A stretch of 64,000 nt of DNA, from positions 1 through 64,000 of IMG/VR virus record IMGVR_UViG_3300009152_000030; one strand, given 5' to 3'. The DNA comes from a virus. The notes under the pieces were generated by a model that was given only the letters and a program-made list of their open reading frames with translations, was not told where the DNA came from and ran no database searches. Shown here piece by piece: positions 39,491 through 57,165 of the stretch. Each line of letters starts with the position of its first letter. Positions within the stretch are counted from its first letter, which is position 1. Position numbers and translations under genes: made by a program.

Positions 39491-39610
39491 TCTCAAAGGA
39501 TGACGTCTTGCAGTACGAACAATAGGGTTTACATCCCCTATTATTCGCAATGTAACCTGCGTGACGCCGTAAACTTGTGAGCATTTTAGAGACCTACTCA
39601 GGTCTGAGGA

Positions 39611-39847
39611 TTATACGAAGAAGCGACGGGCCGTATGCACTGCCTCGATAAGAGAATCAGAGCCAGTGTTGGCGTCGCTCTCGTACTTCTTCTCATCGAG
39701 ACGCTCATTGATGGCATCCCACGGGTCATAAGACTCATGGTTCACGTCATCCAGGCTCAGAGTCTCCTTCTGAACCTCTTCGAAACTATCAGTCAAGATC
39801 GTAGCAGCACTAAACAACATGATATACCTCTTTGCATTGGTAGACAT
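39611..39847 (-). CDS. Hypothetical protein
   Basis: GGTGAG SD; ATG 21 nt after hairpin copy 3. Confidence 0.6.
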   Translation of the reverse strand: MSTNAKRYIMLFSAATILTDSFEEVQKETLSLDDVNHESYDPWDAINERLDEKKYESDANTGSDSLIEAVHTARRFFV

Positions 39848-39868
39848 TACCAATTCTCACCGAAAGAA

Positions 39869-39882
39869 GGGGCGATAGCCCC
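39869..39882. repeat. Conserved hairpin GGGGC-GATA-GCCCC, copy 3 of 4
   Basis: Identical 14-mer preceded by AAAGAA. Confidence 0.85.
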
Positions 39883-40007
39883 TCAGGATTTGTACTGTAG
39901 CGGAGTGGGACCCATAATTATTTGGGCCTATTTTCACTCAGCTGGCCCAGGAGCCGAAACCCCCCGACGCCCGTTAGGGCGAAGGGGGGTTGAGCTGGAC
40001 CTGCGAC

Positions 40008-40430
40008 CTAGAAGGTGCCGTCGTCCGCAGTGGCCGTCTCGCGAAGCGCCGCAAGGGCCTCCGCAGCGGCATCTGCACCAGCGGATGAGGCCGCGGGAGC
40101 CGAAGCGCCAGCGGGGGAGCCAGTCTTGACGACGACGTTGGCGAGGATCTTGACGGCGAAGCCCTTGGAGCCATCCTTGCGGAGGAACTCTTCGTCTTCG
40201 GGGGTTCCGTCCACGAACACGGTGTCGCCCTTCTTGAGGATCTTCGCCATGTTCTCCGCGAGTGCGCCGAAGCACACGACGTCCCGCCACTTCACGACAG
40301 CGACGCCCTTGACCTTGCGGTTGACAGCGACGCGCATGGCGCAGATGGAAGTTCCCGACTGGCCCGTCAGGAGAATAGGGTCGGCTCCAAGGTTGCCGAC
40401 GACCTGAGTACGCTCAAAGCCCATGCTCAT
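40008..40430 (-). CDS. ssb: Single-stranded DNA-binding protein (second, GC-rich copy)
   Basis: VVGNLGADP, RVAVN, WRDVVCFGALAEN..KKGDTVFVDG; acidic tail DDGTF. Confidence 0.9.
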   Translation of the reverse strand: MSMGFERTQVVGNLGADPILLTGQSGTSICAMRVAVNRKVKGVAVVKWRDVVCFGALAENMAKILKKGDTVFVDGTPEDEEFLRKDGSKGFAVKILANVVVKTGSPAGASAPAASSAGADAAAEALAALRETATADDGTF

Positions 40431-40555
40431 GGGTGCGCTCCAGTGTGGAGAGAAGGACCATCCCTCTCTCCGCACAAACAAGGGCCGTTAGGCCCTCTGG
40501 CGATCCATCTCGTTGGATCAACGGGAGCCAGGACATCTGGACTCCGCAGAAAGAA

Positions 40556-40569
40556 GGGGCGATAGCCCC
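40556..40569. repeat. Conserved hairpin GGGGC-GATA-GCCCC, copy 4 of 4
   Basis: Identical 14-mer, followed by GAGCGAAGCGAG at 40571 and again at 40621. Confidence 0.85.
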
Positions 40570-40664
40570 CGAGCGAAGCGAGCTCTACAAGCGAAGAACT
40601 AAGGAACAAACGGACGGCGCGAGCGAAGCGAGCGGCAGCGGAGTAATTGGACCTTTTTTGGATG

Positions 40665-40703
40665 AAAGAAAAAAATAGCCCACCCATGATGGGCAGGCTA
40701 TTC
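40665..40703 (-). terminator. Intrinsic terminator after the polymerase operon
   Basis: AATAGCCTGCCCA-TCA-TGGGTGGGCTATT followed by TTTTTCTTT. Confidence 0.75.
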
Positions 40704-40704
40704 T

Positions 40705-40998
40705 CTAGTTATTGCCGTTCTTCTTTCTGTTTGCTTCTAGCATTTCCAGAAGACCGCGAGCCATCTTTGCATTGTGCTCATTCTCCTTTTGGGTAACCCA
40801 TTTTGGAGGAGGATCTTTGATGTCAAAGAAGATTTGAATTTCATGGCGAAGTACATAGTAACCTTTGTTGATACGTAAATCAACACAGATCACAACTTCT
40901 CCTGCTCCAACCAACGTCCCGTCCCATGCCCTAATAGTGCCGGTTGGCTTTGGTTTGCGGTTTGTTTCAATGATGTGGCCATTAAATGACTTTTTCAT
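40705..40998 (-). CDS. Hypothetical protein
   Basis: ORF between the polymerase gene and the terminator. Confidence 0.6.
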   Translation of the reverse strand: MKKSFNGHIIETNRKPKPTGTIRAWDGTLVGAGEVVICVDLRINKGYYVLRHEIQIFFDIKDPPPKWVTQKENEHNAKMARGLLEMLEANRKKNGNN

Positions 40999-41033
40999 TG
41001 TTGCCTATTCCTTACGTGCAGTGTTATGTTCTG

Positions 41034-44000
41034 CTACTTCTTTGCAAGGTCGTTCGGGTTGATGATAATCATCGGACGATTGACCTTCTTGGCGTAGTTG
41101 ACACAGTTGGATGTGCCACTCGGAGAACCATCCCAGATTGCGACAACCGCCTCGCAGTTATCAACCATCCAGTAGTTCCGTGCGTGGAGACACTTCTCTT
41201 TGCCTGCAAGGTCGTAGCCTTTCTTATTGACAAGCACAACTTGATGAGCAAGAGCAAGCATCTTCTTGTAACGCATCTTAGCTTCGTCACCCTTGAAGTA
41301 ATCACCATGGTCGCTGCAAGGACGAGCCACGATGAACTTGAGGCCAAGCTTGTGAGCCTCACGTGCGGCATCAGTGTCAACGCCAAGAGCACCACCAGTA
41401 ACGACGATGATCTCACGAGTTGCACTGTACTTGGCAATGGCACGCTTTAATGCATCTGCGATTGCATTCTTTACAGCAACACGCAGAGGATGATTCTCGT
41501 CATAGCCGCCAATCTTTTCGGGGCGATGACCAGTGAATGCAATCCTGTAGGGCTTTGCTTCCACGGCAACAACAGGCACAGCAGGAGCAGGCTTGGCTTC
41601 AACAGCAGGAGCGTCAACCGGGACCCAATTGACATCTGCCATGTTCTTAGGCTGCCACTTGCCGTTGACCATTACAAGTTGTACAGGCTGTGCCGCAGTG
41701 TACGTGCCTTCAAGTACTTCACTGAAGATTTGAGTCTCAGACTCTTCCTCGTCACTGTCGTACTCGCTAGCATACTGCTCCAGCTCTTCAGCGCTGACTG
41801 GATTCTCAGAACCAAAGGCATCTTCAAAGTTGAAGTCTGCCATGCCTGCGCTCTCCAGCATCTTGTCGTAGTCGATATTCTCAGAGACAGAGATATCGAA
41901 GAACTCCTTCTCGGGAGGAGGCTCGGGCTTGACCGGCTCTTGACCCTTGAAGGTCAGCCAGACGAAGTTACGAGTGTAGGTCTTGCCGTTGGCACCATGA
42001 CCGTCACGCTTCTCCACTTCGCTTGCCTCAACGGTAGCACCGCTGAAGAAGTTGTTGAGAGTACCGTGGTAGCCCATCATGCCGGCAATCTGCCACTGAG
42101 TCTTGCCCTTGAAGGCACCGTTGTTCTCGAATGCCTTGCGCGTCTCGCTGGTCTTGCGGAAGACCAAGTAAGCAACTGCGGCGGCGCGATGGTCCTGGTC
42201 AGGGTTACCGCGCTGTCCACCGTATGCAAGCTGAATGCGGTTGTCGCTGAGGAGCTGCTGGATGTTGAGGCCAACAAGCGACTGAGGATCAACAGTCTTG
42301 CCATCCTTGCTCTCACGAATGAGGAAGGCGGCGCGAACGTCGGCAGCAAGAAGCTTATCCTGAGTCTTCTTCACGGCAGCATCCTCAAGGAACTTGCAGA
42401 GAACTTCTGCGTAGCCCTTGTAGTTACCGGTCGAGGCAAAGTACATCTTGCGGCTGTAACCACCGCTGGAGGTAAGCTCACCCTGCGCGTCGATGGCGTC
42501 AGAGTCGATGATCTTTGTCTTGTTGCCTTCTTCGTCATCAAGGAACTCGACCTTACCCTTGCCCATGGACAGAGTAATAGGCTTTTCCGCAGACGTACCG
42601 AGAGCGGACATCAGCTCAGAAAGCACGAACATTTCGTACTTGTACTCAGCCTTATCCTCGTAGACCTCTTCGAAGAGAGGCCAGAGATCCTCGTGACGTG
42701 CTGCGAAGGCTGCATGGATGGGCTTCTGAGCGTAAACCCGACGAAGGGTCTTGAGCTCTTCAGCGTTCATCATGTAGCGAACCTTGTCGATTTCCTCGTA
42801 ACGATGCTTCATTGCCTCAGGCACAGTCATCATGTGACCATTGTCCTGGCTGTAGCGATTGACCGCATGATACTTACGGAACATGAAGGAGCCGAAGGTC
42901 GTGAGATTGAACTCACCCTCGTATTGCTCCTGCTCATCCCGGTAGTGCTTGCTGATCAGCTCATCAAGCTCATGCGAGTGCTCTTCAAGGAACGCCTGAA
43001 GATTGGAGGTCAGGAGAGTAGCAGTCTGAGTGCTGTGACCCTCATCGATGAACGACTTGAGGTTCGAGGTCATCGTCTTCCAGTAGCGTGTGAAGCTGCG
43101 GATGATGGGATGCTCAACCTTGACAGACCGACCATCTGCCGTGACAACCGTCTGACGAAGGCTCTGGCAGATCTTAGCGGTCATCGGGATCTTGCCCTCT
43201 TCGTCCTTGAACAAGGCAGGAGCAATGATGTTCTCGCCCGTGATCTCGGAGATTTCTCCCGTGTAACGCACAGCAACAGGTGCAGTTACAAGCGAAAGAA
43301 GGCTGACACCAAGCCGCTTGCGCACAGGCTTAAGGGCCGTCATCTTGCTAGGCTTAGCATCGGGATTCTCACGCATCGCATTGCGGTCGTTGAGTACCCA
43401 GCTGACAGCAATCATCGTCATGATAGCGTCGATGTTGTGCCATGCACGCCAAGCGCCGGGGAAGTCAGTGCCGCTCTGAGCAGCATCGACCACCAGCGAG
43501 ATCTCACCTTCCATCATGCAAGCTGCAAGAAGGGCGGATGGAGTCTTGACTACCGACGGCAGAATGATCAGGTCAGCAAGCAGATAGCTGCCGAACATCT
43601 GAGCATTTGCCATTGCGCCAACGATGGGCATGAACTCGTTATCACCAGGAAGGTGAATCATGTCCCACTTCTCTTCAGCAGTCTTGTCGGCAACCGAAGG
43701 ATCTGCAGGCTGAGCCTTCTCAGCAAGGGCCGTAATGTTGTACTTGATCAAGCCAGAAGGCGAGACAGTCTCGACCGTCTTGACATCAAAGTACGACGAC
43801 AGCAGCTTGTGACCATTCGGAATGGTGTTCACAAGATCAAGCTTTTCAGGAAGCTTAGCAAGGAAGGTGTGTGCCTTCTCGTAAGTATCCTGGACCTGCT
43901 GAACGGTGAACTGGCTCAGCTTGTAGTTACGCAGGTTCATAGAACGCAGCGCAAGCAAGCCAAGCTTACCGCACAGGAAGAACGCCTTGTCGTCAGCGTC

Positions 44001-45527
44001 ACCGCCGTCCATGCTAACAAGGACAGCCTTCTGCATGATCTCCGTGCTGCCGAAGTATGCAGTAGCGTGCAGGAACATGTCGTCCTTAAGGACAACATAG
44101 ATAACCCGCACATCGACCTTAGCCGAAGTAGGCCAACGAGCCGCAGCGCCAAGGCTATCCCGATGGTTGACGGCAAGCTCCTTCTCGTTCTCACCCTTCA
44201 CATCATGGATGTTAAGAGCAGGAACGTTGAGGTTCTTCGCAGCTTCTGCCGTGATAGCAATTGCCGCAAATCCCGTCTTGGCAAGGATCTGTTCCGACTT
44301 GGCGTTGAACGCTTCCTCGATCTTTGCCTTGCGGTCAAGCTCAGCCATGATGAGAAGACGACGCTTCTTCAGGCCAGCGGTTTCGTTTGCAAAGGCACCC
44401 TGCTTCTCCTCATGGAGCCACAGGTCACGGAACATACGCCAGACAAGAGCGCGGGGATACGAGGTAAAGCCACAAGGGCCGTCCTTTGTAACCGCGTTGA
44501 TGCGAAGCTTGCTCTGCGTAACGTCTTCGCTGACACTGTTGACTAGAGTAGTCACAGTAGCAGGAATTGCGCCAGGGTGAACACCAAGGCTAAGAAGCAT
44601 CTTGGTGATCTTTGCCTTGAATGTTGAGGACGTTTCCGTTGCCTCAAGGACGTCGCCATCGAGACCCTTAAGGGCATTCTTGACGTAGTCATCCCAGTGC
44701 GAGATGTTCCAGTCAATCATCTCGTTGAGGATCGCATGGAACTTCGGGTCGTTGAGCACCTGACCAAACAGGGCGCTCAAGTTCTGGACGCCGAGAAGGA
44801 CACCAGGCTCAGACTTCATCTCACCAACGGTCGGCTGCACCATAAGCGCAACATCGGGAGAGAGATCAGGCTTGAGATCCTGCTTGCCTTCGGAGCTCAG
44901 CAGGAAGACATGGGGCGGAAGCCAAAGCTTGACCGCACCCATTGCGCCCTTATAGTACGCTTCGAGCTTAACCACACGGCGAACCTGCATGCCCTGCGTC
45001 ATGGGGCCAGGGGTGAGCTCTGCAGTGCCCATGTAGTGGACACCGTCCTGGATTGCCTTGTAGGCAGGATCCAAGTCAGCCATGTCTACAACCTTGCCAG
45101 TTGCAGATACGATGGCGCTGTAGGTGGCCGTCATCATGGAACGCGCATACTTGCGGCCCTTCTGAGCGGTCTTGCTGGTATACCCAACAGAACCCACAAG
45201 CTTTGCCTTCAGCGCCTTAGGCACCATCAGCGTCTCCATGCTGCTAACAGCAAAGAGGGCAACGTGACCGTCCGGGCATTTCTGCCCTTTCTCAACCACA
45301 GGGTGGTCGAGGAGGCTTTCAAAGCCCGGAAGATCGGAATAGGGGCTCTTAACCCCGGAATACTCGAGATGCTCTCGATAGCTACGGTACATAGTACCCT
45401 CCTTGTCAGTAACCAAAATGGTTACGTTCTGTTTCATGTTTTCTACCATTCGCCCATATCCATTGTAACAACAGGAAGAGTCGGAGCAACTACTGATACT
45501 GTCTCCATCTTGAAGCCAGAGTCCCAA
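41034..45527 (-). CDS. Putative single-chain two-barrel RNA polymerase (YonO/cellular RdRP-like) fused to a C-terminal YspA-type SLOG domain
   Basis: Ordered motifs QDG, QVR..YKG, RWP, GGDADD; SLOG: IAFTGHRP, GGALGVD, RNYWMVD, WDGSPSGT. True start probably 45449 or 45437. Confidence 0.65.
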   Translation of the reverse strand: MGLWLQDGDSISSCSDSSCCYNGYGRMVENMKQNVTILVTDKEGTMYRSYREHLEYSGVKSPYSDLPGFESLLDHPVVEKGQKCPDGHVALFAVSSMETLMVPKALKAKLVGSVGYTSKTAQKGRKYARSMMTATYSAIVSATGKVVDMADLDPAYKAIQDGVHYMGTAELTPGPMTQGMQVRRVVKLEAYYKGAMGAVKLWLPPHVFLLSSEGKQDLKPDLSPDVALMVQPTVGEMKSEPGVLLGVQNLSALFGQVLNDPKFHAILNEMIDWNISHWDDYVKNALKGLDGDVLEATETSSTFKAKITKMLLSLGVHPGAIPATVTTLVNSVSEDVTQSKLRINAVTKDGPCGFTSYPRALVWRMFRDLWLHEEKQGAFANETAGLKKRRLLIMAELDRKAKIEEAFNAKSEQILAKTGFAAIAITAEAAKNLNVPALNIHDVKGENEKELAVNHRDSLGAAARWPTSAKVDVRVIYVVLKDDMFLHATAYFGSTEIMQKAVLVSMDGGDADDKAFFLCGKLGLLALRSMNLRNYKLSQFTVQQVQDTYEKAHTFLAKLPEKLDLVNTIPNGHKLLSSYFDVKTVETVSPSGLIKYNITALAEKAQPADPSVADKTAEEKWDMIHLPGDNEFMPIVGAMANAQMFGSYLLADLIILPSVVKTPSALLAACMMEGEISLVVDAAQSGTDFPGAWRAWHNIDAIMTMIAVSWVLNDRNAMRENPDAKPSKMTALKPVRKRLGVSLLSLVTAPVAVRYTGEISEITGENIIAPALFKDEEGKIPMTAKICQSLRQTVVTADGRSVKVEHPIIRSFTRYWKTMTSNLKSFIDEGHSTQTATLLTSNLQAFLEEHSHELDELISKHYRDEQEQYEGEFNLTTFGSFMFRKYHAVNRYSQDNGHMMTVPEAMKHRYEEIDKVRYMMNAEELKTLRRVYAQKPIHAAFAARHEDLWPLFEEVYEDKAEYKYEMFVLSELMSALGTSAEKPITLSMGKGKVEFLDDEEGNKTKIIDSDAIDAQGELTSSGGYSRKMYFASTGNYKGYAEVLCKFLEDAAVKKTQDKLLAADVRAAFLIRESKDGKTVDPQSLVGLNIQQLLSDNRIQLAYGGQRGNPDQDHRAAAVAYLVFRKTSETRKAFENNGAFKGKTQWQIAGMMGYHGTLNNFFSGATVEASEVEKRDGHGANGKTYTRNFVWLTFKGQEPVKPEPPPEKEFFDISVSENIDYDKMLESAGMADFNFEDAFGSENPVSAEELEQYASEYDSDEEESETQIFSEVLEGTYTAAQPVQLVMVNGKWQPKNMADVNWVPVDAPAVEAKPAPAVPVVAVEAKPYRIAFTGHRPEKIGGYDENHPLRVAVKNAIADALKRAIAKYSATREIIVVTGGALGVDTDAAREAHKLGLKFIVARPCSDHGDYFKGDEAKMRYKKMLALAHQVVLVNKKGYDLAGKEKCLHARNYWMVDNCEAVVAIWDGSPSGTSNCVNYAKKVNRPMIIINPNDLAKK

Positions 45528-47419
45528 CCCTCACGAGTTGATGTATGCTTTGAGTTGCAGTCTGTGTAGTTAAGCATTGCACGTTCTTCGGCAGTCATCA
45601 TCCGATGAGGATTAGCTTTTGCAATCTCAGGATGAACCAACATAAAGCCGCACTTGGTCTTCATCCAGTCGTAACCGAAGTCGAAAAAGAGCTTTATCGC
45701 CAGATCTAGTCCGGCTAATTGCTTCCTAGACGAACCCTTCTTGTTGTCCGATACATCCGTCTGCACCATGGACAAACGAAGATTCATGTCGATTTTATCG
45801 AACATGTGAACCTGAGCTCGCAACTCAGAGTTTGCCATTGGTAGTTTTGTCTTCAGCGAGTAGACAGCACGCGAGGCTTTGCTTTCTTGAAGCTCTGCAT
45901 GGTACCGAGCCTTGAATTCCGGGAAAGACAGACCAGCAAGGTGCGGAAGCATCCCATATTCTGTTGTTTCCCACTTTTGACGATACTCGTCTTCGAAGTA
46001 CCCCCAATCCAAGTCCGGACGGTTGCAGTCAGTCCAAAGGGTACCACTCTGCTCATTCGCAAGATTATGCAAGTCATAAGCATACATACCATTACATTCA
46101 CTAGCTTTGAAAAGCTGCAGATACCGTAGCATATGATAATATGCTTGGCTCGTGCTGTCCACATTGGTCAGATAGAACCTTTGGTACCTTTTGTTCTGAG
46201 GTACAGCCTGTTCTACAAAGCCAGTTGCGGTTACCACAACACGATTAACGAGTTCGACTCTAAATACACCCTTGTCGCACAGGTATGTATTCCGAACTGC
46301 TCTTCCACAGGCAAGGTTTTGAATGCAAGTCTTACCAGTTTTTGACCAAGTAAGAACTTCCTCTCTTTTGCCAAAGTGAGCAATCTCGCCACTTTCGTAC
46401 ACGTCAGTGGTTTTTGCAAACTCTGTAATGCGTTCGATTTCCGATACCCATTCGTTATAGGTCATCTTCCGCATCTTGTACCAGGACGTAAGGATCATTC
46501 TGATCCACTTCTCTTCAGGGCCATTGGGGTTGAGTTTGGCCTCTCCAAACACCTGCTTGGCAAGTTGCTCTTCTTGGCCATCCCAGCGGTTTTCATTGCC
46601 AAAGCCCCAGTCAGAGACACCACCGCCAGCAGTCAGGACAAAGCCAAACGAGAACTTATTCCCGTTGCCATCGGTGCCCGTCTTGGCATCTACTGTTTTA
46701 TCAACAATATAGCCGTGGTATTGTCCAGACTTCATCTGCTGTTGATAGGTGCCACCACCAACGCAGAAGTGCCCCTTGTAGCGTGAATTGATGCTCTTGC
46801 ATTCATCCCACGCCTGCTGGGGATCAACCCAGCGGAAGTAATACGTCTCCTTGTTGAAGAGAGCCGTTACTTCACAGGTCTTGAGGGATGCCTCGCCGAT
46901 GACCGCGCCCAGGAACTTGACAGACAAGCTATTCACAAGCTCAACTGTGCTAGTGTACCGATTGCGAACAACGTGCCATTCGGCAGCTGACCATGTTTCA
47001 ATACAATTCTTCTTCTTGGCCAGCTTGGCAATGTCCTGGAAGAAGGTCTCCCAGGTAGGCTCATGAGTAACCTCCTTGAACCAGGCCATCATTTCCTTAT
47101 TGGCAAGGAGGATACTGGCAAACTTGTTGAATGCCGCAACATTCATGACCTTTACCTTGATCACCTTGGTCCGGCCCGTCGGCGGCGACCACTTAACCTG
47201 ACGCTCAGAGCCAAAGCACCGAATGCGGTACATGTCAACTCCCTGCTCCTTTAGAGCAATGATGCGCTTACGCACACTCATCAGGTTTGACAGCGAGAAC
47301 CCAGGCATTTCAGGCTGGATCTCATTGGCAATATATTGCCGCTGTTCGAGACGCATTTGCTTGGCCTTCATAAGGGCCTCCTTCTGTTCGGTGGTCATGT
47401 TTTTGGTCATCTTACTCAT
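45443..47419 (-). CDS. Hypothetical protein (658 aa) overlapping the polymerase start
   Basis: Long ORF; AAGGGG SD. Confidence 0.75.
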   Translation of the reverse strand: MSKMTKNMTTEQKEALMKAKQMRLEQRQYIANEIQPEMPGFSLSNLMSVRKRIIALKEQGVDMYRIRCFGSERQVKWSPPTGRTKVIKVKVMNVAAFNKFASILLANKEMMAWFKEVTHEPTWETFFQDIAKLAKKKNCIETWSAAEWHVVRNRYTSTVELVNSLSVKFLGAVIGEASLKTCEVTALFNKETYYFRWVDPQQAWDECKSINSRYKGHFCVGGGTYQQQMKSGQYHGYIVDKTVDAKTGTDGNGNKFSFGFVLTAGGGVSDWGFGNENRWDGQEEQLAKQVFGEAKLNPNGPEEKWIRMILTSWYKMRKMTYNEWVSEIERITEFAKTTDVYESGEIAHFGKREEVLTWSKTGKTCIQNLACGRAVRNTYLCDKGVFRVELVNRVVVTATGFVEQAVPQNKRYQRFYLTNVDSTSQAYYHMLRYLQLFKASECNGMYAYDLHNLANEQSGTLWTDCNRPDLDWGYFEDEYRQKWETTEYGMLPHLAGLSFPEFKARYHAELQESKASRAVYSLKTKLPMANSELRAQVHMFDKIDMNLRLSMVQTDVSDNKKGSSRKQLAGLDLAIKLFFDFGYDWMKTKCGFMLVHPEIAKANPHRMMTAEERAMLNYTDCNSKHTSTREGWDSGFKMETVSVVAPTLPVVTMDMGEW

Positions 47420-49854
47420 TGATTTACCCCCTTTGCCACTTTGGCACAGTTAACAATTCCATGATTAATCTTCCGGCTAACTTGGATGTCATTGCGCAGT
47501 TCGGTCTTCTTACCGATCACTACGTCAATGAACAAGTCAGCAGCCTGTTCAATCGTGAGCGCTGTAGGCGCAGGATTGACCGCAGGAAGCAACTCGAACA
47601 GTCGCAGAAGCAAGGAAGGACGCGGCTCTGCGTCGGCCATAGGCACAGTTGCAACCACAGGCTTGCGGAACTTGGCCACAGCCTTGAGGTCAGACATGGT
47701 CACCTGGGCATGCTCACGTGCAGGCGCAGCAGGTCGACCGAACTTCACCACAGCGATCTCCTTCCGGAGGTTGTGAGGAAGCGAGACGAACGAACAGCCG
47801 GTGCCCAGACGGGGCTTGGCGGGTGCGTTGGCGGGTGCGTTGACGGCAGGCTTGACCTCAGCCTTGGGAGCGGCCTCAGGCTTGGTCATGACGACCATAA
47901 CCTTGGCAGCAGCAGGCTTAGCAGTCGGCGCAACCGTGGTGACCGTCGTGATGCCAGCCTTGGCCTTGATCACGGCCTTGACCTTTGCCTTTGCCTTCGC
48001 AGCCTTGGCCTTGCGAGTTGCCGCCTTGGCGCTCTTGGCAGCGCGAGCCTCCGAGAGCTCCTGTGCCTTGCGTGCAGCGATTGCAGCGCGGATTGCCGTG
48101 ACCTTGGCCTTGACGGCCTTCTTCTCGGCGTCCACCTTGGCGAGGACTGCAGCCTGTGCAGCCTTTACCTCGGCTTCGACAGCAAGACGCGCAGCCTTGG
48201 CAGTGGCACTCTGGTTGGCGATCTGGGCAGGGTTCTGATCAGCCCAGCGCACCCCGACCTCATTGACGTTCCAAAAACGGCAGAAGGAGCTGAGCCGTGC
48301 GGCAGCAGCACGACGAGCGGTGCGAACGGTCTTGTCGAGGGTCTTGACCCCCGTGTTCGCCGAACGAGGCCCGAATGCTGCCTTGACGAGGCGGGTGGCA
48401 TCCAAGTAGTCGTTGTTACGGACGACCTTGACCTTTGCGGCGCTCTTGACCACAGGCTTTGCCACGAACGGCTTGGCCTGTGCACGAAGGATGGGAAGCT
48501 CGTTGCGCTTGGCCTTAGCCTTGCGCTGAGCAACCTCGATCTTCACCGCAGTCTCGGGGCGAGTGTAGCGGTTGGCGCGGTTTGCCTTCTTGGCGAGCAG
48601 CTTCCGAAGGGCAGTGCCAGGTCGATTGTTCGCCGGCCCCGTTGCTTTCTCTTTCTGGCGCTGACCAATGAGGCCAATCGACCAGCCGCCGACGTGACCG
48701 CTCTTGCGGCCACCCCCAACCTTGTAGCTCTCGGTGTAGATGTATTGGACCTCGGGGCGGGGGACCGACACGCCGTGGAAGCGGATGCCGGCACGCTTGC
48801 GCCAGAGGTGAAGGAGGCGACGGCGAGACCGGCGGGACATACGAGACTGACGCATGACGAGATCCTTTGGAGGACGGGGGGATTTGGACTTGTTACGCAT
48901 GACGATATCCTTGGGTGGACGGGACTTCTTGTTCTTCATGGGGCGCTCCGTGTAGTGCGGGTTTCCGGTGTCGCTGATGCCACACATTGCGGCAATCTTG
49001 ACATCGTGGGTAAGCATGCGGATGAGTGCGTCGAGCGCGATCTTCATTGCCATTGTAGTCTCCAGTGGCGGTGGGGGTGTTGGTTCAGGTTGGTTCACAA
49101 TCTCACTCATCTTGTCCTCCTCTAGCACATAGACACAACCAGGACCACCTTTTTTGGCATCCCAGTCAATAAGGCGCACATGATCCCAAGAGCATTGCCC
49201 CTGAGGAATCTTTGAACGACGAGTATGACCAACAATAGCAAGCCCGTGCTTACCCTTGTAATCTTTGGCCCAGAAGTTATCAGGGTCAGTGTTATCAACA
49301 AGCTCGATCTGGGCTGCAGTCGGCTTACCTTTGACAAACCTAGGAGGCAATTTACCAGCTGGAAGTTTGGCATGGACAGCCGTCCAGGTTGTGTCCTTGA
49401 CCCATAGAGGCCGAGAGCGCAACCAGACCATATCGTCCTCCGTAAGTAGAGCACGAAGCTTGCACCACTCATTCCAGATGCGTACATAGTCTTCGTCTGC
49501 CAGGTTATAGTGCAGGCTCCAAGCCTTTGTCAATTCTTCCTGGCTATTGCCAAAGAAGAGAGGATACAGCTCATGGTTGCCCAAGATGAGCTCCGAGCCA
49601 GAGGCACGAATGATGTCAAGGCAATCCTTGGCACCCTGTGCGCCACCTTCCCCATCGAAGATATCTCCGAGGAAGATAATGTCTCTGCCGTTTGCCATCT
49701 CAATGGCAGAAGTGACGAGAGAGGGACGTGCGTGAATATCGCCAACGAAAACCTTTTCCATTTTAATCTCCTTGGTAGGCCTATCAATCTTCATATCATT
49801 CATTGGAACAACCTTTGTAATAGTACAAATAGATACATTCATTTGCTTATCCAT
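47416..49854 (-). CDS. Calcineurin-like metallophosphoesterase fused in frame to a long Lys/Arg/Ala-rich region
   Basis: GDIH, LGDIFD, GNHE, VHA, GHT; then a Pro linker and ~550 basic low-complexity residues. Confidence 0.8.
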   Translation of the reverse strand: MDKQMNVSICTITKVVPMNDMKIDRPTKEIKMEKVFVGDIHARPSLVTSAIEMANGRDIIFLGDIFDGEGGAQGAKDCLDIIRASGSELILGNHELYPLFFGNSQEELTKAWSLHYNLADEDYVRIWNEWCKLRALLTEDDMVWLRSRPLWVKDTTWTAVHAKLPAGKLPPRFVKGKPTAAQIELVDNTDPDNFWAKDYKGKHGLAIVGHTRRSKIPQGQCSWDHVRLIDWDAKKGGPGCVYVLEEDKMSEIVNQPEPTPPPPLETTMAMKIALDALIRMLTHDVKIAAMCGISDTGNPHYTERPMKNKKSRPPKDIVMRNKSKSPRPPKDLVMRQSRMSRRSRRRLLHLWRKRAGIRFHGVSVPRPEVQYIYTESYKVGGGRKSGHVGGWSIGLIGQRQKEKATGPANNRPGTALRKLLAKKANRANRYTRPETAVKIEVAQRKAKAKRNELPILRAQAKPFVAKPVVKSAAKVKVVRNNDYLDATRLVKAAFGPRSANTGVKTLDKTVRTARRAAAARLSSFCRFWNVNEVGVRWADQNPAQIANQSATAKAARLAVEAEVKAAQAAVLAKVDAEKKAVKAKVTAIRAAIAARKAQELSEARAAKSAKAATRKAKAAKAKAKVKAVIKAKAGITTVTTVAPTAKPAAAKVMVVMTKPEAAPKAEVKPAVNAPANAPAKPRLGTGCSFVSLPHNLRKEIAVVKFGRPAAPAREHAQVTMSDLKAVAKFRKPVVATVPMADAEPRPSLLLRLFELLPAVNPAPTALTIEQAADLFIDVVIGKKTELRNDIQVSRKINHGIVNCAKVAKGVNQ

Positions 49855-49871
49855 GACGTTCTCCCTAGGCA

Positions 49872-50042
49872 CTAGTGGATACGCCGGCCAATGCGGCCGA
49901 TGCGGGAGTGACGGAAACGGCGAGCCACTGCCTTCTTGACAGCAGCCTTTTCAATAGCCTTGGCCTCAGCGTTAGCTGCAACCTTGGCGGTCATCTCCCC
50001 CTTAATAAGGAGGAAAATTAGGACAAACAGGACGACAATCAT
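49872..50042 (-). CDS. Small membrane-anchored basic peptide (56 aa, not in ORF track)
   Basis: MIVVLFVLIFLLIKGEMTAKVAANAEAKAIEKAAVKKAVARRFRHSRIGRIGRRIH fills the gap exactly. Confidence 0.55.
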   Translation of the reverse strand: MIVVLFVLIFLLIKGEMTAKVAANAEAKAIEKAAVKKAVARRFRHSRIGRIGRRIH

Positions 50043-50043
50043 G

Positions 50044-51195
50044 TTACTTCTCCCAGTTGCTGATAGTCTCCTGCCCGTATTTAAGCAGGAACTGTTGATA
50101 AAGGTCCTTGTACCATTCCATGTTTTCCTTGGCGTAAGCCAGGTTTACCGTATCCTTGCTGCGGTCCAAGCTACCCCAGCAGTCAGTTTGGCCAATGTAC
50201 AAGGCATCATTGTACTTGACTTGAAAGTCTTCAGCATCACCTGTGCCAAGGGCTTGGCGCTGAGGGCTTTCCGCATAAGATACGAAGCCAATCACTTCAT
50301 CGCCGGCCATCAAAGGCCCACCAGAGTCACCATGGTCAGGAGAAACTTCAAGGCTGAGGCTGGCAGCACAGATAAAGCGTTGGTTGCTAGCGCCTGCAAT
50401 GTACCTCTTGTAGGTATCAACAAGATTCTTGAAGATAACCTCGGGGCTTTTCAGACTTACATCCTCAAGTGCTTTTCTGGCATCAATGAATGCCCATCTC
50501 ATGTCATTCTGCTCTTTCATGCTAGGCGTACCCTTCTTCATGTGGTCAAAGACCTGCTCAAAAGGCACATAACCCCACATGTCTGTGGTCTTACCCCACC
50601 AACGGAAGTCAGTGCTGCACTCAAGACCAATCTCATAGAGATCTTCCTTGATTTCGTTAGGATAATGGTCAGCCGGCACAACGATATCGCCAGCGTTTTC
50701 ACGGTAACCGTTACGTGTGCAGTGCTCTGCCGTGTAGATCTTACCTTTCCACTTCCATGCAGTGCAGTTCCCGCTCTCATCAAGGGGGCCTTCATTTTCC
50801 CTGGTGTTGACAGGACCAATTCCAGGGTGGATGTTGTTCTCTGCCCGGTACTTCTCTTCCAGGAATTCTTCCACTTCCTGAACAACCTCGTAATAGTCGC
50901 TGTTAGCAACCCACTCTGCCTGACGGATTTCCTCCTTCCGTGCCGCAGCAGCTTCTTCCTGGCGAAGGCGGGTGTTATTACCCGTCATGGTCACAAAGAT
51001 ACCAGCAAAGGCTGCAAAGATTGCAACCATTGCCAGCACAAAGAGGATGTTCTCGCGGCGGTCTGCCTTCTTCATCTTGTCCTCCCTCTCACGGTACGCC
51101 TTAAGCTCGGCCTGTTGCATTTCTTCCCAGTTGTCCATGACCTTCTCCTTGTTTGTTGAGTTAGCAGCAATGTCTAGAACAGTAACGTTATTCAT
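50044..51195 (-). CDS. Membrane-anchored trypsin-like (S1) serine protease
   Basis: CTAW...YTAEHC (His), GDSGGP (Ser); TM segment ILFVLAMVAIFAAFAGIFV. Confidence 0.75.
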   Translation of the reverse strand: MNNVTVLDIAANSTNKEKVMDNWEEMQQAELKAYREREDKMKKADRRENILFVLAMVAIFAAFAGIFVTMTGNNTRLRQEEAAAARKEEIRQAEWVANSDYYEVVQEVEEFLEEKYRAENNIHPGIGPVNTRENEGPLDESGNCTAWKWKGKIYTAEHCTRNGYRENAGDIVVPADHYPNEIKEDLYEIGLECSTDFRWWGKTTDMWGYVPFEQVFDHMKKGTPSMKEQNDMRWAFIDARKALEDVSLKSPEVIFKNLVDTYKRYIAGASNQRFICAASLSLEVSPDHGDSGGPLMAGDEVIGFVSYAESPQRQALGTGDAEDFQVKYNDALYIGQTDCWGSLDRSKDTVNLAYAKENMEWYKDLYQQFLLKYGQETISNWEK

Positions 51196-52531
51196 GAGTC
51201 CACCCCAGCATTTCAATGATGTCAAAGACATTCGTGTAATCGCTAAAGATATCCGAGTAGCTTGACGCCATTTCATCAATGAACGGCGATGCAACCGGCT
51301 TATTGTCAACCATAGCAAAGCAAGAGACCTGATAGTTGCTATGAGCTTCCGGATAGAAGTCATCAAACATCTGGTTGTCGGTCCGAACGAAAAACGAGAC
51401 ACTACCAATGACTTCGTCACCAAGCATGATGGGGCCACCAGAGTCACCCTTCTTGATGCTATCTTCCGCCACAGAAGAAGCACAGAGATACTCTTGGCTT
51501 GTGTAGTGCTCTTTGATGTACTTCAACTGGTTGTAGAATTTGTTGAACGCTGCATGTGCTTTTTCTTTTGCTTTCTTCGTATTATCGCTATTAGTCTTCA
51601 TGCTGTTCTCTTCGATTGTGTACTTGTAATCGTTAAGAGCGGCAATAGCCTTATACTTAGAGTCAATAAGCTCTTGTTGCATTTCGTAAGGAGCACCAAG
51701 ATAGTTTCTTGTCTTCTTGAAGATCTGCTCCATAGGAATAGTTACCCACTTATTGGTGGTTGTGCCCCACCAGCGGATATCAGGGCTGCACTCTGTACCT
51801 TCCTTGTAGAAGTCACCAGAGATAGTGTTATCGGCTGTTGACTGCTGGACGCGGTCTGTGTTGCCGTGCTTTTCCAGGTAGTCATTGCAGTGCTGGATGG
51901 TGTAGGTCTTACCGTTCCATTTCCATGCGCTGCAGGTGCCGTACAGAACTTCACCGTCCTTGTATACAGGAGACTCAATTTTGCCATAGGCCTTAGCAGT
52001 ATTATCAACCTGCTCATAATTAGTAACAGCATTAGCGGTCGACTGCGCATTTTCAATCTCAGGCTTAGCATCGGTACCGCAAGCCGTAGTGATTACGAGG
52101 AGAAGGAAGGTTGCAATCTTTGCCATCATTTCCGCATAGTTAGCTTTCACAAGAGCCTCGTTAACCTTCAGATTATGGAAGGCGTTGGTTGCAAGTGCAA
52201 TGCTGCGCACATCGTCATGGTACTCAACGTGGATGAGGATATCAATGGCAGTAAATGCCAAGGGGGCAAGTGCGAGAGTGCACACGACCATATCCTGGAA
52301 CGTAGCCACAAGGGCGTAGGGAATGAAGAGAGCTGCAGTGCAGACAATGCTGAACGCAAGCCCAATGGACCTCTTGCTAACGACAAGCATGACGGACTCC
52401 TTGTTGGCAACAAACTTGTTCATGACAGACCCCTTCCAGACAGCGGTGATGATAGCCAGGATGGCAAAAATGACGAATGCAATTGACATAGCAGACTCCT
52501 TGTTGACGACAGAATTGTCGATGGTGTTCAT
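51188..52531 (-). CDS. Membrane-anchored trypsin-like serine protease, paralog
   Basis: CSAW...YTIQHC, GDSGGP; several TM segments and an internal lipobox-like TTAC. Confidence 0.75.
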   Translation of the reverse strand: MNTIDNSVVNKESAMSIAFVIFAILAIITAVWKGSVMNKFVANKESVMLVVSKRSIGLAFSIVCTAALFIPYALVATFQDMVVCTLALAPLAFTAIDILIHVEYHDDVRSIALATNAFHNLKVNEALVKANYAEMMAKIATFLLLVITTACGTDAKPEIENAQSTANAVTNYEQVDNTAKAYGKIESPVYKDGEVLYGTCSAWKWNGKTYTIQHCNDYLEKHGNTDRVQQSTADNTISGDFYKEGTECSPDIRWWGTTTNKWVTIPMEQIFKKTRNYLGAPYEMQQELIDSKYKAIAALNDYKYTIEENSMKTNSDNTKKAKEKAHAAFNKFYNQLKYIKEHYTSQEYLCASSVAEDSIKKGDSGGPIMLGDEVIGSVSFFVRTDNQMFDDFYPEAHSNYQVSCFAMVDNKPVASPFIDEMASSYSDIFSDYTNVFDIIEMLGWTHE

Positions 52532-53280
52532 TAGTACACCTTTACGATTTCGCAGGCGAAAAGGTCGATAAAGTCAAAGTTGTCATCCTTTGTGCCAATG
52601 GAACGGTTGCGAGCGAGGCTATAGTCGTCGCAAAGACCAAAGCGCTGAGCGTACCCTTCGAACAGGTAGTCACCGACGCGAGAACAAGCAGGACAACCGC
52701 CTTCCCAGTCAAGTCCAGTCGGCTTCCAGTCGCGAAAAGGAGGAGACTTTCTGATTTCTCGTGCAAGCATAATTTCAGGCTTGTAGATTTCAACTGCATA
52801 GTTGACCTCAACAATCCACTCATGCTTGATACCTTCAGAGCAGATCAGGCCGTTGTCGTTGTCCATCATAAGCTCAGCAAGCTCACGAAAGATAACAGGG
52901 TCATTGCAACGATCAAGATTGAACTTAATCGGGAATCCTTCCTTCATGACTTTGATAGTGGAGATCGGAACGTCCGCGATTACCTGTACAGCACTCGAAG
53001 AGTGCTTCTTGGTAATGTATGCAGCCCAGAAAGCATCCAGATTGGCATTTGCCGGAACAGCCCAAGTGCCCATCACTTTCTTTCCTTCCGGGTGAAGGTG
53101 ATTGGTGACTTCCATTGCGGGAACGCCATCCTTAGCAATGATGTCGCCAAAGTTAGGCGCAGTCCAGTGAATAACACGCATAGTCTTCATGGTTTCCTCC
53201 ATCTTAGCCGAAACGGCGATTTCTTCAGTAATCTTATTCATGACGTTCACCTTGTTGGTGTTGAGGGTGTTGATTTTCAT
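52531..53280 (-). CDS. Hypothetical protein
   Basis: ORF with several candidate starts; C-terminal CPAC. Confidence 0.65.
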   Translation of the reverse strand: MKINTLNTNKVNVMNKITEEIAVSAKMEETMKTMRVIHWTAPNFGDIIAKDGVPAMEVTNHLHPEGKKVMGTWAVPANANLDAFWAAYITKKHSSSAVQVIADVPISTIKVMKEGFPIKFNLDRCNDPVIFRELAELMMDNDNGLICSEGIKHEWIVEVNYAVEIYKPEIMLAREIRKSPPFRDWKPTGLDWEGGCPACSRVGDYLFEGYAQRFGLCDDYSLARNRSIGTKDDNFDFIDLFACEIVKVY

Positions 53281-53284
53281 TGTA

Positions 53285-55444
53285 TTACCAGACATCGTTG
53301 TAGCTATCGGCAGCAAGCTTAGCCTTGATCTGCGCCACAACATGGTTGATATTGAATTCACGCTGGATAAACCAGGTGTTAGAGATTTTCATGGCCTCAA
53401 TCTGACCCGGGGTCTTCTTGGTCTCCGAGCTTTCGCCGTCACCAAACATACCAATCAGAATAGGACGGTGCTTGCTACTGCGGTTGTTATCGCCCATACC
53501 GAAGTCAACAACACCAGCACTGTTCGTAAGGATAACGCCAAAGTTATCCCATTCGCCGTTGATCTGGATGTCTGCAATCCAGGGGATATTCGTACCATTG
53601 AGGAACTTCTCCTGGTAGTAACCATGGCTCTGCTGAGTGCCATGACCGGTGCAGAACTTACCCGTGTACTTGCTGTTGATCTGCTGAGACTCATTCCACA
53701 TACCAGCGGCATCCGTACGACGAATACGAAGAACCTGATCGTAGCCAGCAGCAAGAATCTTCTCAACCTGCTCAGTGTCAGCTACGTCACAGCTCTTGAA
53801 TTCTTTGCTACCAAACTTGAAGCCAACAACAACGTCAGTCGTAAGCTTGCAGATTGCAACTTCCTCAAGAGCAAAGATAGGCATCAAGTCTTCCTTGAGC
53901 TGCTTGACCTTGTTATAGCGCTGAGCATAAGTCTTCCACTGATTAGCCTTCCAGAGGTTTTTCTCAGCATTCATTTCTTTGCTGCACCAGAAGTTTTCCT
54001 CAGTCTTCATTGCATGCATTTCGTCAGCAAAAGCAGCGTCTTTGCTCATAGCAACGAGCAAACCACCTGTTGCCGCGTCATTAAGCGGCAAGCACCAGCG
54101 GCTAAAGAATTGAATGGTCTTCTTCTCAATGAGCAACTTTGCCGCTTGCCACTCAGCCTTCGTGAGAATACGATAGGCCTGCCAGTTGTAACCATGCTGC
54201 CAATTTGTTTGGCAGATAAAGTGGTAGTATTCATTTTCGCTATTTCTCATGGCTTTTTCGAGAGCGCGAGCAAATTCTGAGAACTTGATGGCCAAATTGT
54301 TATAGGCCGCAGCATTACGATTGCTTTCGTCAACGTTAGCCAGCATTAGCCAGTACGAACGGATGCCTTGAATACTAGCATTCTTGTAGAAGAAACTGTA
54401 GTCCGCAGACTCTTGAAGATTCTTTTCAGCCTTGATAAAGGACTCAAAAGTAATCTCTTCCTTGAGTTGCGTATCAAACATAGTCCAGAGGGCATTAATA
54501 TCGGTAGCGTTTTCGATCGATTTGATAAAGTCCTGGTACTTCATCGTCTCTGCGCTCTGCTTACAGCCAAGTTCTGCTTGCATCTCAAGATTTTTGCGCT
54601 GTCTTTCTGCGATTTCAAGGGAAAGCCGGGCATTGCGTGCAATTCGCTGAGCTTCGCGCTCTTCCTCCTGGCGGCACCACGCCTCATGCTCAGCAGCTTC
54701 ACGCTCAAGACGAGCAATGCGCTCTGCCTGATCCAACGCCTGCTGACGCGCATATGCAATGTTACGCTCACGACGCTCCATCATGTAGAAGGCGTCATGC
54801 ATGCGCTGCTGCTCACTCTCAGCAGCCATCTTGCGCACTTGCTTAGCAAGCTTATCAGTCTTCTGCTTGTTCTCATACCAGAACATAGCAACAACTGCAG
54901 CAATCATTGCGACAACCATGGCAATCAACGCGATAACAATCATGATCCTATCCTGAGTCATGTTTGCACTAGCAATGGCCAACACAGGTACAATACTAAA
55001 CATCTTATTCTCCTCGTTCTTCATGACATCCTCTTCATTAACGTCGGAATTGACGTTGTTATTGACATCCTTCTTAACCCAAGCCTGCTGTGCAGCAAAG
55101 GCCATGATAGCCTCCATGCTAGCAGTGCTCATCACAGGCATCTCGCTGTCATCCTCGTACAGGGCCTCAATCTCAGCCTCAAACTGCGCATCTTCGGTAA
55201 CATCACTGTACACCGGGTGATTATTATTGAGGTCAACCTCATACTCATTCGTATACTGAATCTTATTCGACATGGCGTCCACCTCGTTATCAGCCTGGTA
55301 GCTGGGGTTATTGCTATTGAAAAGAACGTTGATCAGGCTAGTCATGACAGTCACCTTGTTGTTGCTATGAGTGTTATTATTCATAGTCTTGTTATTGATG
55401 ATGGTGTTGGTGATGGTGGTAGGGGTTTGTGCGAGCGTGCACAT
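53285..55444 (-). CDS. Hypothetical membrane-anchored coiled-coil protein
   Basis: TM segment IMIVIALIAMVVAMIAAVVAMFW, coiled coil; many internal SD-ATG sites. Confidence 0.7.
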   Translation of the reverse strand: MCTLAQTPTTITNTIINNKTMNNNTHSNNKVTVMTSLINVLFNSNNPSYQADNEVDAMSNKIQYTNEYEVDLNNNHPVYSDVTEDAQFEAEIEALYEDDSEMPVMSTASMEAIMAFAAQQAWVKKDVNNNVNSDVNEEDVMKNEENKMFSIVPVLAIASANMTQDRIMIVIALIAMVVAMIAAVVAMFWYENKQKTDKLAKQVRKMAAESEQQRMHDAFYMMERRERNIAYARQQALDQAERIARLEREAAEHEAWCRQEEEREAQRIARNARLSLEIAERQRKNLEMQAELGCKQSAETMKYQDFIKSIENATDINALWTMFDTQLKEEITFESFIKAEKNLQESADYSFFYKNASIQGIRSYWLMLANVDESNRNAAAYNNLAIKFSEFARALEKAMRNSENEYYHFICQTNWQHGYNWQAYRILTKAEWQAAKLLIEKKTIQFFSRWCLPLNDAATGGLLVAMSKDAAFADEMHAMKTEENFWCSKEMNAEKNLWKANQWKTYAQRYNKVKQLKEDLMPIFALEEVAICKLTTDVVVGFKFGSKEFKSCDVADTEQVEKILAAGYDQVLRIRRTDAAGMWNESQQINSKYTGKFCTGHGTQQSHGYYQEKFLNGTNIPWIADIQINGEWDNFGVILTNSAGVVDFGMGDNNRSSKHRPILIGMFGDGESSETKKTPGQIEAMKISNTWFIQREFNINHVVAQIKAKLAADSYNDVW

Positions 55445-55839
55445 GGCGTTCCTTACTGCCCTTGTGGGGGCGATGTCCAAAGCTAGCGGAATCGCTAGCA
55501 GTTGGTGAGAGTTGGAAAGACCCTCATCCCTTAGTACATAGTCTTAAAAGGGGGTGGGCTAAAAACGAATAGGGTATGGGTAAGTATAGGGGCCCAGGAG
55601 TATAAGTACCCGCTCTTTTCCGAAAAAAAAATATATATATAAATAGAGGCTGTACCTATACCTTAATACTTGGCCTTTCACTCTTTTCTATAAAAAATAT
55701 ATATAAATATATAAAAATATATATAAAGGCCTTTTGCCCTAAGCCTATGACCCTTTCCCCCTCACGTAGTTCTTTTTCCCATGTATAGCGTTTCTTATGG
55801 TTTCTTATGGTATCAAGTTAGTAAAGTTTAAACTTTAGT

Positions 55840-57165
55840 TTGATTACTAGTAAGAAGAATTCTGTTTTGGCTCATTACAATGATATAAACAAGGCTAATA
55901 GGAATAAACCTAGATCCTCACACGACAACAGTGCAGGGCGTGGAGCCGATAATCCCTATAAGAATGCACCGCGTTTAGAGAACCCTACTTATACTGGTAC
56001 TATGACTGGACAAGTTATAGATCCTTATACATTGTCTAGTAAGCTATCTAATAGATTGGAGTTCTCCTCAAAGGAGGAAGGGATGCCTTTTGATTTAAAT
56101 GCATTAGAGGAAAATGTAGACATTAGTTCTAGTGCTAAGGGACTACCTACTAGGCAAATGGAAATATCTGAGGATAAAGCCTTTGATAAGACCTCACCCC
56201 TCCTGAAAGACTCTAGTATGATTTCAGGTAATAGAAATGCTAATGGTCTCGGCGGCGTGGAGGCTAATACCCAAGTTCTACTTGACAGAGTAGGTGAGCT
56301 TTTAGATAACGATGAAACACTATTGGAAAGAGTTGAGCCCCTTGATAATACTTCTTCTACTAGTATTAGCTTACGTGATGCTTTTCAAAGTGCCTTAGAT
56401 AGTAGTGATCTTGGCACTGTAGATGCTGCTAACTTTTTTTCTAATAGTAGTTTAGGGGCGTTTCTTGGTAGTGACCCTGATTTATATAGAGACTTACATA
56501 TAACACCTCAGAGTGCTGCTAGAATGAGGTCGCATCTTGCCGCTGTTAAGCATGGAACTTATGCTAGTGTACCCTTAATCTGTAAAGGCTATGAGAGTTG
56601 TCCAATCCGTAGTTCTTGTTGGTTTGCTGTTAAGAGAGATAACGGTAGTGTTGATCTTGCTGCTAGTAAATTCCCCTTGCTTCAACCTTGCCCCGTAGAA
56701 GCAAGTATTCTTCAGGTTAAGGTTAAGCAATACTGTAGTGAAAACTTTCATAATTTAAATTACATTACTCCTACTATTGTTAGCTTAGCTACTAAGTTGG
56801 CTGAGTTAGATATCTATGAGATTCGAGTTAATATGCTATTAAGTCAAGGTGATAGCCTTGGTGAAGGTCGAGACCTAATGCAGGAAGCCGTACTAAGCAA
56901 TGATATGCATGGTAATCCTGTTAAGACTGCGATGAAGGAACATCCTGCCTTTGCATTGAAAGAGCGTTTTCAGAAAATGCGTAGTCAACTAATGAAGGAG
57001 CTATTAAGTACCCCAGAAGCCAAGCTAAATGCCAGAGCAAAGATAGAAGCTACTAAGGCTGAGAGCGTTAGTTCAACTATGACAAAAATGTCTGCTGCAT
57101 TAAGCAAGATTAATAGTTTAATAAGGGATAATACTGTAGATCCAATGGACTTTGACGATGACTAA
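55840..57165 (+). CDS. Hypothetical protein, possible terminase small subunit-like C-terminus
   Basis: Cys cluster C..CP..C..CPVE; KEHPAF...QLMKELLSTPEAK resembles P27-type TerS; start uncertain. Confidence 0.45.
   Translation: MITSKKNSVLAHYNDINKANRNKPRSSHDNSAGRGADNPYKNAPRLENPTYTGTMTGQVIDPYTLSSKLSNRLEFSSKEEGMPFDLNALEENVDISSSAKGLPTRQMEISEDKAFDKTSPLLKDSSMISGNRNANGLGGVEANTQVLLDRVGELLDNDETLLERVEPLDNTSSTSISLRDAFQSALDSSDLGTVDAANFFSNSSLGAFLGSDPDLYRDLHITPQSAARMRSHLAAVKHGTYASVPLICKGYESCPIRSSCWFAVKRDNGSVDLAASKFPLLQPCPVEASILQVKVKQYCSENFHNLNYITPTIVSLATKLAELDIYEIRVNMLLSQGDSLGEGRDLMQEAVLSNDMHGNPVKTAMKEHPAFALKERFQKMRSQLMKELLSTPEAKLNARAKIEATKAESVSSTMTKMSAALSKINSLIRDNTVDPMDFDDD

Follow-up and report, generated by a model that had tools for sequence, protein, structure and literature searches.

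Several phage genes are read from two in-frame starts, among them lambda S107/S105, P22 sieB/esc and T7 4A/4B; such genes have one extra start with a defined role, and in holin genes the two starts lie 1–3 codons apart. Phage endolysin genes with an in-frame internal start, often placed at a domain linker and led by a Shine-Dalgarno (SD) motif, yield two polypeptides, the full-length and a shorter product (PMC9430671). In Escherichia coli, ribosome profiling with retapamulin located 5'-proximal in-frame internal initiation sites such as Met-26 of speA, in which an AUG near the gene start follows an SD-like motif and yields an isoform missing a few N-terminal residues or some of a targeting signal; genome-wide, 22 conserved 5'-proximal sites of this kind were found, all isolated (bioRxiv 10.1101/520783). 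The PeSL cassettes of T4-type phages are mobile regulatory units in which an intergenic promoter and a terminator stem-loop flank variable early genes (PMC2839356, PMC4122927), and in synthetic bicistronic design (BCD) translation elements a short translated leader, whose stop overlaps the start of the gene, holds the downstream SD in its own codons and makes the gene cassette portable between contexts (bioRxiv 10.1101/2023.02.09.527918; PMC6302717); natural translational coupling has also been described (PMC12548453). Here, we describe stacks of in-frame, SD-led ATGs in five consecutive genes, g1 to g5, of the phage record IMGVR_UViG_3300009152_000030 from IMG/VR. The window analysed, 64,000 nucleotides long, comprises the first 64 kb of this single 174,117-bp contig, and the five genes belong to an operon, g1–g7, that lies wholly on the minus strand and runs from 55.5 kb down to 41 kb.

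The stacks resemble each of these systems in part. As in E. coli, in-frame ATGs with an SD at working distance cluster at the 5' ends of genes and are conserved beyond background, the closeness of the available relatives limiting the power of that comparison; unlike in E. coli, two to six sites per gene are found in five consecutive genes, as repeated cassettes that double as recombination joints, and they are known here from sequence. As in endolysin-type genes, an SD-led ATG can stand at a domain linker (49110 in g5; all positions are window coordinates), whereas known phage dual-start genes have one extra start and the genes described here have several. The spacing of adjacent starts, 7–56 codons and mostly 11–33 (up to 56 in g1), is wider than in holins, the genes encode 236–812 amino acids (aa), and lysis genes were not seen nearby. 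As with PeSL, short repeated expression signals flank variable genes and act as modular shuffling points between close relatives, with the joints at the repeated motif; in contrast to PeSL, what is repeated is a leader that binds ribosomes and is itself translated in frame, and a scan of the region for sigma-70-like promoters and terminators remained at chance level (12 promoter-like sites against 12.1 expected and 12 terminator-like sites against 10.5, none at junctions), giving no support for internal transcripts that feed the inner starts. Finally, leaders with the downstream SD inside their codons are present at five junctions, as in BCD elements, but they have no in-frame stop and are read into the gene, which would give a longer protein. 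Because it departs from E. coli internal sites, endolysins, PeSL and BCD elements in a defining feature each, we file the stack as a member of none of them.

Stacked in-frame SD-led ATGs

Real gene starts throughout the genome carry an AAGGAG-type SD 5–8 nt ahead of the ATG, and the host therefore reads SDs. The original prediction had interpreted recurring peptides encoded in g1–g5 as translations of SD motifs ahead of in-frame ATGs at 20 positions, and all 20 are indeed in-frame minus-strand ATGs with an SD-like motif upstream, distributed over five consecutive open reading frames (ORFs). Fifteen of them qualify as strong sites, defined as those with 5 nt or more matching TAAGGAGGTGAT at 3–11 nt before the ATG; at the remaining five (55024, 52423, 49854, 49053 and 48939) only a 4-nt SD core is present. 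As a caveat on this list, 53241, 52489 and 51138 are ordinary SD-led gene starts, located 41–49 nt past the upstream stop. The sites were also said to cluster at N-termini and domain boundaries, in agreement with their location in the first 20–200 codons and, for the second group in g5, directly past the phosphatase domain. The g5 linker contains, at 48850–48945 on the minus strand, a tandem duplication of ~15 codons, in which Pro-Pro-Lys-Asp-Ile/Leu-Val-Met appears twice and corresponds to two of the listed sites; the duplication is present in all four relatives compared.

In total, g1–g5 contain 21 strong in-frame sites among 96 Met codons. Permutation of the codons of whole genes gives 7.3 ± 2.7 strong sites, with 21 reached in none of 500 trials; synonymous shuffling gives 14.9 ± 2.5, with 21 reached in 8 of 500; and permutation inside windows of 10, 20 or 40 codons gives 10.8–11.5 ± 2.7, with 21 reached in at most 1 of 1000. 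Because the excess survives window permutation, which keeps local composition, it is a local coupling of SD and ATG and no by-product of acidic, Lys-rich N-termini. Out-of-frame ATGs in g1–g5 are preceded by an SD in 6–7% of cases, equal to the rest of the genome, and only one of the six out-of-frame SD-led ATGs is in an N-terminal zone; elsewhere in the 174-kb genome SD-led ATGs are depleted (60 against 76 expected). The count of in-frame against out-of-frame sites and against codon shuffles, by which the original prediction was to be judged, thus gave an excess that is frame-specific and above all shuffles. An explanation by chance and composition would start from the block at 36–56 kb, in which the operon lies and which has a GC content of 48–54% against ~38% elsewhere in the genome, the difference residing almost wholly in third codon positions (GC content at third positions, GC3, 0.59 against 0.28; at second positions, GC2, 0.39 in both): AAG and GAG are preferred codons there, and GC3-rich codons of this type would make SD-like hexamers common. 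However, all shuffles that preserve codon usage, those that also hold local composition among them, yield about half the observed count or less, and g6 and g7, despite having the same composition, lack an overall excess of SD-led ATGs. The shuffles largely refute composition as the cause, and we regard it as scarcely credible.

For comparison, we used nine related loci from at most six phages (L001–L004, which are two IMG/VR contigs fetched twice, L005–L009, and L033, the only further close relative returned by a metagenome scan); their proteins are 63–97% identical to those of the window genes, and gene order varies. Full conservation of the Met was seen at 16 of 17 SD-preceded sites, as opposed to 30 of 52 plain Mets at similar surrounding identity (p = 0.007), and the SD is retained in 51 of 60 comparisons among relatives. 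At 55003, the SD persists through a change from Glu-Glu to Lys-Asp. The sites also resemble starts in their predicted energetics. SD pairing energies range from -4 to -12 kcal/mol, the median of real starts elsewhere being -5.8, and pairing to the anti-SD of -8 or stronger is found for 12% of in-frame Mets in g1–g5 and for 1.3% of Mets inside genes elsewhere. For the 61 nt surrounding each site, the median predicted folding energy is -8.7 kcal/mol, against -13.4 for the region (p = 1e-5), with 10 of 22 sites among the weakest-folded 10% of positions; this contrast is in part circular, given that motifs rich in purines and A form weak folds in any case. Public gene calls in the g3 family differ, three of the four g3 starts being used, and give proteins of 447, 433 and 400 aa. 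In g1, variation across relatives shows a third-position excess only from ~55345 onward, and the stretch 55444–55345 may therefore be leader rather than protein.

These observations bear on two readings in which SD and ATG would not act together in initiation. The recurring peptides (Asn-Lys-Glu-x-Val-Met and similar) might be protein-level signals, such as protease cleavage sites or targeting tags, with an incidental likeness to SDs; much of the excess does lie in amino-acid order, Glu being enriched twofold and Asp 1.5-fold 2–4 codons before Met, and the operon encodes two trypsin-like proteases. Yet the peptides are diverse (NKESVM, EEDKM, MEETM, PKDIVM) and have in common only purine-rich nucleotides and an ATG at SD spacing, the change from Glu-Glu to Lys-Asp leaves the SD intact, and the sites are places of weak mRNA folding and of DNA breakpoints, making such signals a very unlikely source of the pattern. 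We give just as little weight to the idea that the SD-like motifs are elongation pauses before transmembrane (TM) helices that aid membrane targeting, with the ATGs incidental: the last site does stand directly before a hydrophobic helix in g1, g3 and g4, but local permutation couples the SD to the ATG at start-site spacing, g2 and g5 are stacked yet have no TM helix, and pausing at SD-like motifs is itself disputed.

Junction build and mosaic joints

Five of the six operon junctions are built alike. The spacer between the upstream stop and the SD-led ATG measures 41–50 nt, and a junction ATG, either overlapping that stop or at most 8 nt away, shares the frame of the SD-led ATG, which follows 13–19 codons later. 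The junction SD is stereotyped (ACAAGGWG, 6 nt, ATG) and occurs at 55345, 53241, 52489, 52390, 51138 and 45392. In the five junction spacers and the g1 leader, the gene frame is free of stops in six of six cases, while the other two frames contain stops in four and in six of the six. Simulations with the spacers' own composition give, per junction, a probability of 0.40 for an open frame and of 0.03 for an open frame together with an ATG at the stop. Of 141 ORF ends in the genome, 6 show this build, all of them inside the GC-rich block. A gene stack comprises three kinds of site: the stop-associated ATG, then the SD-led one and, past it, one to four more sites. When viral contigs were scanned with the pattern of the leader cassette, 23 single hits were returned, about the chance level estimated from the specificity of the pattern, and the exact cassette pattern was not seen in these contigs outside this phage group. 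ORF extensions of g4 beyond 51195 and of g2 beyond 53295 merely run, in a different frame, over the end of the gene before and were left outside the stack.

The same sites mark joints between related phages. In BLAST comparisons, rearrangement breakpoints lie at most 3 nt from the ATGs at 55444, 53241, 53190, 52531 and 49854 and at most 16 nt from those at 51195 and 49803 (the breakpoints in g5 being at 49852/49847 and 49814), as read by eye from the table of high-scoring segment pairs. Three more joints were placed elsewhere, two at the end of g4 and one within g3 between the TM module and the protease domain. Junction A illustrates the pattern: the 120 nt that lead up to ATG 53241 are ~91% identical in seven related loci from at most five distinct phages, and past this ATG L001 and L002 stay near-identical while L005–L009 drop immediately to ~34%, the random level, three different genes following the junction (g2 of the window, a protease, and an unrelated gene).

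Shorter leader pieces appear to be mobile as well. L008 has an insertion, precisely at ATG 55444, of an ORF of 54 codons, which is flanked by a duplicated SD-ATG segment of ~20 nt. In L002, an unrelated gene is headed by copies of the g2 leader (ATG, 17 codons, SD, ATG), with homology ending 6 nt past the second ATG. L006 and L008 share, at 85% identity, a leader of 84 nt enclosed by two ATGs, both of its flanks being at the random level of ~28%. Within the window, the leaders of g1 and g2 are identical at 38 of 51 nt without gaps, and two g3 sites at 20 of 29 nt. The g2 domain is preceded by three different in-frame leaders in relatives, and in an exhaustive protein search distant g2 homologues begin at the residue matching the second site (53190 or 53181), so that the 17-codon leader is a later addition. 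These likenesses, the recurring leaders and the start of the g2 homologues lend direct comparative support to the earlier proposal that the genes grew by duplication of initiation regions. For the loss of stop codons that was part of this proposal no support was seen: g5 is split into two genes in no relative, its phosphatase and basic region are always fused, and a separate protein corresponding to its C-terminal 563 aa was not found in a search of proteins of 449–1432 aa with the best 8000 candidates scored.

Two further features of exchange were noted in this region. The N-terminal module of g3 (52190–52531, ~110 aa; P0012–P0015) shows near identity between relatives with only 42–49% identity in their protease domains, and in one relative the g3 TM module is joined to a g4-type protease, with the joint at ~52190–52203; g3 also has an internal lipoprotein-like signal, a hydrophobic run ending in Thr-Ala-Cys, directly before the protease domain. 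Upstream of g1, 192 nt (window 55437–55628; 73–264 in L008) are 100% identical between the window and L008, the flanking genes being 80–95% identical, which suggests either that this stretch was exchanged recently or that the divergent junction holds a control region under strong constraint.

A proposed model of portable in-frame initiation cassettes

The stacks in g1–g5 are non-random and conserved, their junctions share one build, and mosaic joints fall on them. To account for this, we favor a model whereby portable in-frame initiation cassettes stack through recombination, probably giving N-terminally nested isoforms. In this model, each gene of the GC-rich operon would carry a self-contained cassette that begins with the ATG at, or at most 8 nt from, the upstream stop, suited to re-initiation by terminating ribosomes and hence presumably serving coupling, and continues through an open, A/C-rich and weakly folded in-frame leader of 13–19 codons to ACAAGGWG, 6 nt and a second ATG for fresh ribosome binding. 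Cassettes and short two-ATG leader pieces would be the recombination units of related phages, and repeated exchange would pile further SD-led ATGs upstream of the older start. Only in-frame stacks would survive because ribosomes starting at any site still make the protein; the frame bias is then simply explained, since an SD-led ATG placed ahead of the start in another frame would draw ribosomes away, while one in frame does no more than make the protein longer. N-terminally nested isoforms are the likely output, mostly 11–33 residues apart and up to ~114 in g1, and g5 may in addition yield a C-terminal product of ~563 aa.

Nested isoforms were among the outcomes considered in the original prediction, and they are plausible in view of SD strengths that equal or exceed those of real starts, weakly folded mRNA, and unusually conserved Mets; a boost in ribosome loading, which it also considered, is partly consistent with our results, in that an ATG at each upstream stop would suit re-initiation. 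Alternatively, each gene might have a single start, the other in-frame SD-led ATGs being neutral scars of cassette recombination that are tolerated as they are in frame. This would agree with the coincidence of mosaic joints and sites, with an ancestral g2 start that sits behind an added leader, with the weak synonymous signal, and with the strong folding and lack of conservation at 55105. Scars would not be expected to leave SD-preceded Mets more conserved than plain Mets or to maintain the SD at 55003 across a non-synonymous change, the presence of an ATG at the upstream stop in five of five junctions (P = 0.03 each) is hard to explain in this way, and strong SD-led ATGs in open mRNA should recruit ribosomes anyway. 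We hold the scar explanation to be possible but rather unlikely. Several sites per gene are probably in use. The conserved ATGs at upstream stops, the conserved SD-led Mets, and the start-like SDs in open folding argue that at least part of the stack serves initiation and is not merely tolerated.

Several points weigh against the cassette model. The synonymous-codon signal is modest (the 8 of 500 shuffles above), and much of the signal therefore lies in amino-acid order; the ratio of GAG to GAA near Met is 23:10 against 83:71, and a pooled Lys/Glu test is not significant. Site 55105 is strongly folded and not conserved, and no SD precedes the ATGs at the g1 stop. Since the second-ATG sites are predicted to be unfolded as they stand, a helicase-type role for leader translation is unneeded. 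Joints at gene starts are expected anyway, whatever the role of the sites, because of selection on viable recombinants. Finally, the relatives are few and close, which limits the power of the conservation tests and means that ancestry is shared.

If the cassettes act as proposed, we tentatively suggest, as one possibility, that the two-ATG leaders do in nature, and in frame, what insulating translation elements do in engineered systems: they would permit shuffling of early genes between phages without loss of expression, coupling to the upstream gene by way of the stop-associated ATG, protein versions with and without a short N-terminal tag, and linkers for recombination. A role of g3 isoforms in flipping membrane topology was considered and rejected on sequence grounds, as the loop joining helices 1 and 2 is rich in Lys/Arg and the first helix could thus be added without changing the rest.

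Genes of the operon and wider meaning

The genes, their candidate starts and the cassettes are compiled in Table 1. The assignment of g3 and g4 to the trypsin-like proteases (PF00089) is based on 27.1 and 30.9 bits, respectively, against a gathering cut-off of 20.6, with only the C-terminal part of the model matched; the catalytic His and Asp and the serine in Gly-Asp-Ser-Gly-Gly-Pro are invariant in 11 sequences. For g5, residues 41–220 match the calcineurin-like metallophosphatases (PF00149) with a marginal score of 23.2 bits against a cut-off of 21.5. No family assignment was obtained for g1, g2 and g6: no PHROGs family matched g1–g4, a sequence search against solved structures returned nothing for g1, g2 and g6, and DNA and protein searches of a phage collection with the region and with g1 gave no matches. 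A domain of ~210 aa shared by g1 (53285–54000) and g6 (46400–47000) belongs to no known family (26% identity, E = 1e-15) and contains a conserved Cys-x-Gly-x-Gly-Thr and a Gly-rich motif. The small ORF between g4 and g5 begins 2 nt past the g4 stop and is absent from the ORF list; in L006, a 56-aa gene was called at the matching position.

Table 1 Features of the g1–g7 operon in window coordinates
Feature	Position	Strand	Description
g1	ORF 53285–55480; gene 53285–55444	minus	membrane protein: acidic N-terminal region, one TM helix, coiled coil, C-terminal domain common to g6
g1 starts	in-frame SD-led ATGs 55444, 55345, 55273, 55105, 55024, 55003; leader ATG 55384	minus	
g1 double-ATG leader cassette	55343–55386	minus	ATG 55384, 13 codons, ACAAGGTG, 6 nt, ATG 55345
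g2	ORF 52531–53361; gene 52531–53241	minus	protein of unknown function
g2 starts	53241, 53190; in-frame leader ATGs 53295, 53280 around g1 stop	minus	
Junction A	53239–53282	minus	g1–g2 spacer and leader, ends in ATG 53241
g3	51188–52531	minus	multi-TM N-terminal module and trypsin-like protease
g3 starts	in-frame SD-led ATGs 52531 (overlaps g2 stop), 52489, 52423, 52390	minus	
g4	ORF 50044–51483; gene 50044–51195	minus	TM-anchored trypsin-like protease
g4 starts	ATG 51195 (overlaps g3 end); SD-led ATGs 51138, 51075	minus	
Small ORF between g4 and g5	49872–50042	minus	56 codons, one hydrophobic helix
g5	ORF 47416–49872; gene 47416–49854	minus	metallophosphatase fused to basic region of ~560 aa
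g5 N-terminal sites	49854, 49803, 49761	minus	
g5 internal cluster	49110, 49053, 48939, 48900, 48855	minus	directly past phosphatase domain
g6	45443–47419	minus	ATG 47419 overlaps g5 stop; SD-led ATG 47371 16 codons later; junction build as others, no further stack
g7	ORF 41034–45527; gene 41034–45449	minus	large protein, C-terminal SLOG domain
g7 starts	ATG 45449 overlaps g6 stop; ACAAGGAG and ATG 45392 19 codons later	minus	

The GC-rich block (window 36000–56000, with g1–g7 at 41034–55543) retains 49–52% GC in relatives and is either a foreign module or under a different selection regime on early mRNA. Antisense ORFs of up to 1018 codons run through it on the plus strand (41490–44546, 47419–49125 and 53189–54280), and in L008 (2608–3468) and L009 a public gene caller took the antisense strand at the position of g2 in the window; such long antisense ORFs are an annotation hazard in blocks of this kind.

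Both nested in-frame starts and the mosaic exchange of genes are familiar in their own right. Here, they appear as two faces of one translated leader that is bounded by start codons, at once an expression signal and a recombination unit. If more than one site per gene serves initiation, each of the five adjacent phage genes would encode a family of N-terminal isoforms, which ordinary annotation reduces to one product; for g3, the start already differs between public pipelines (447, 433 or 400 aa). The stacks are also a practical warning for the annotation of GC-rich blocks like this one. If the cassette makes expression independent of context, it would be a ready-made part for engineering and a principle by which nature designs portable genes for GC-rich mRNA with strong folding.

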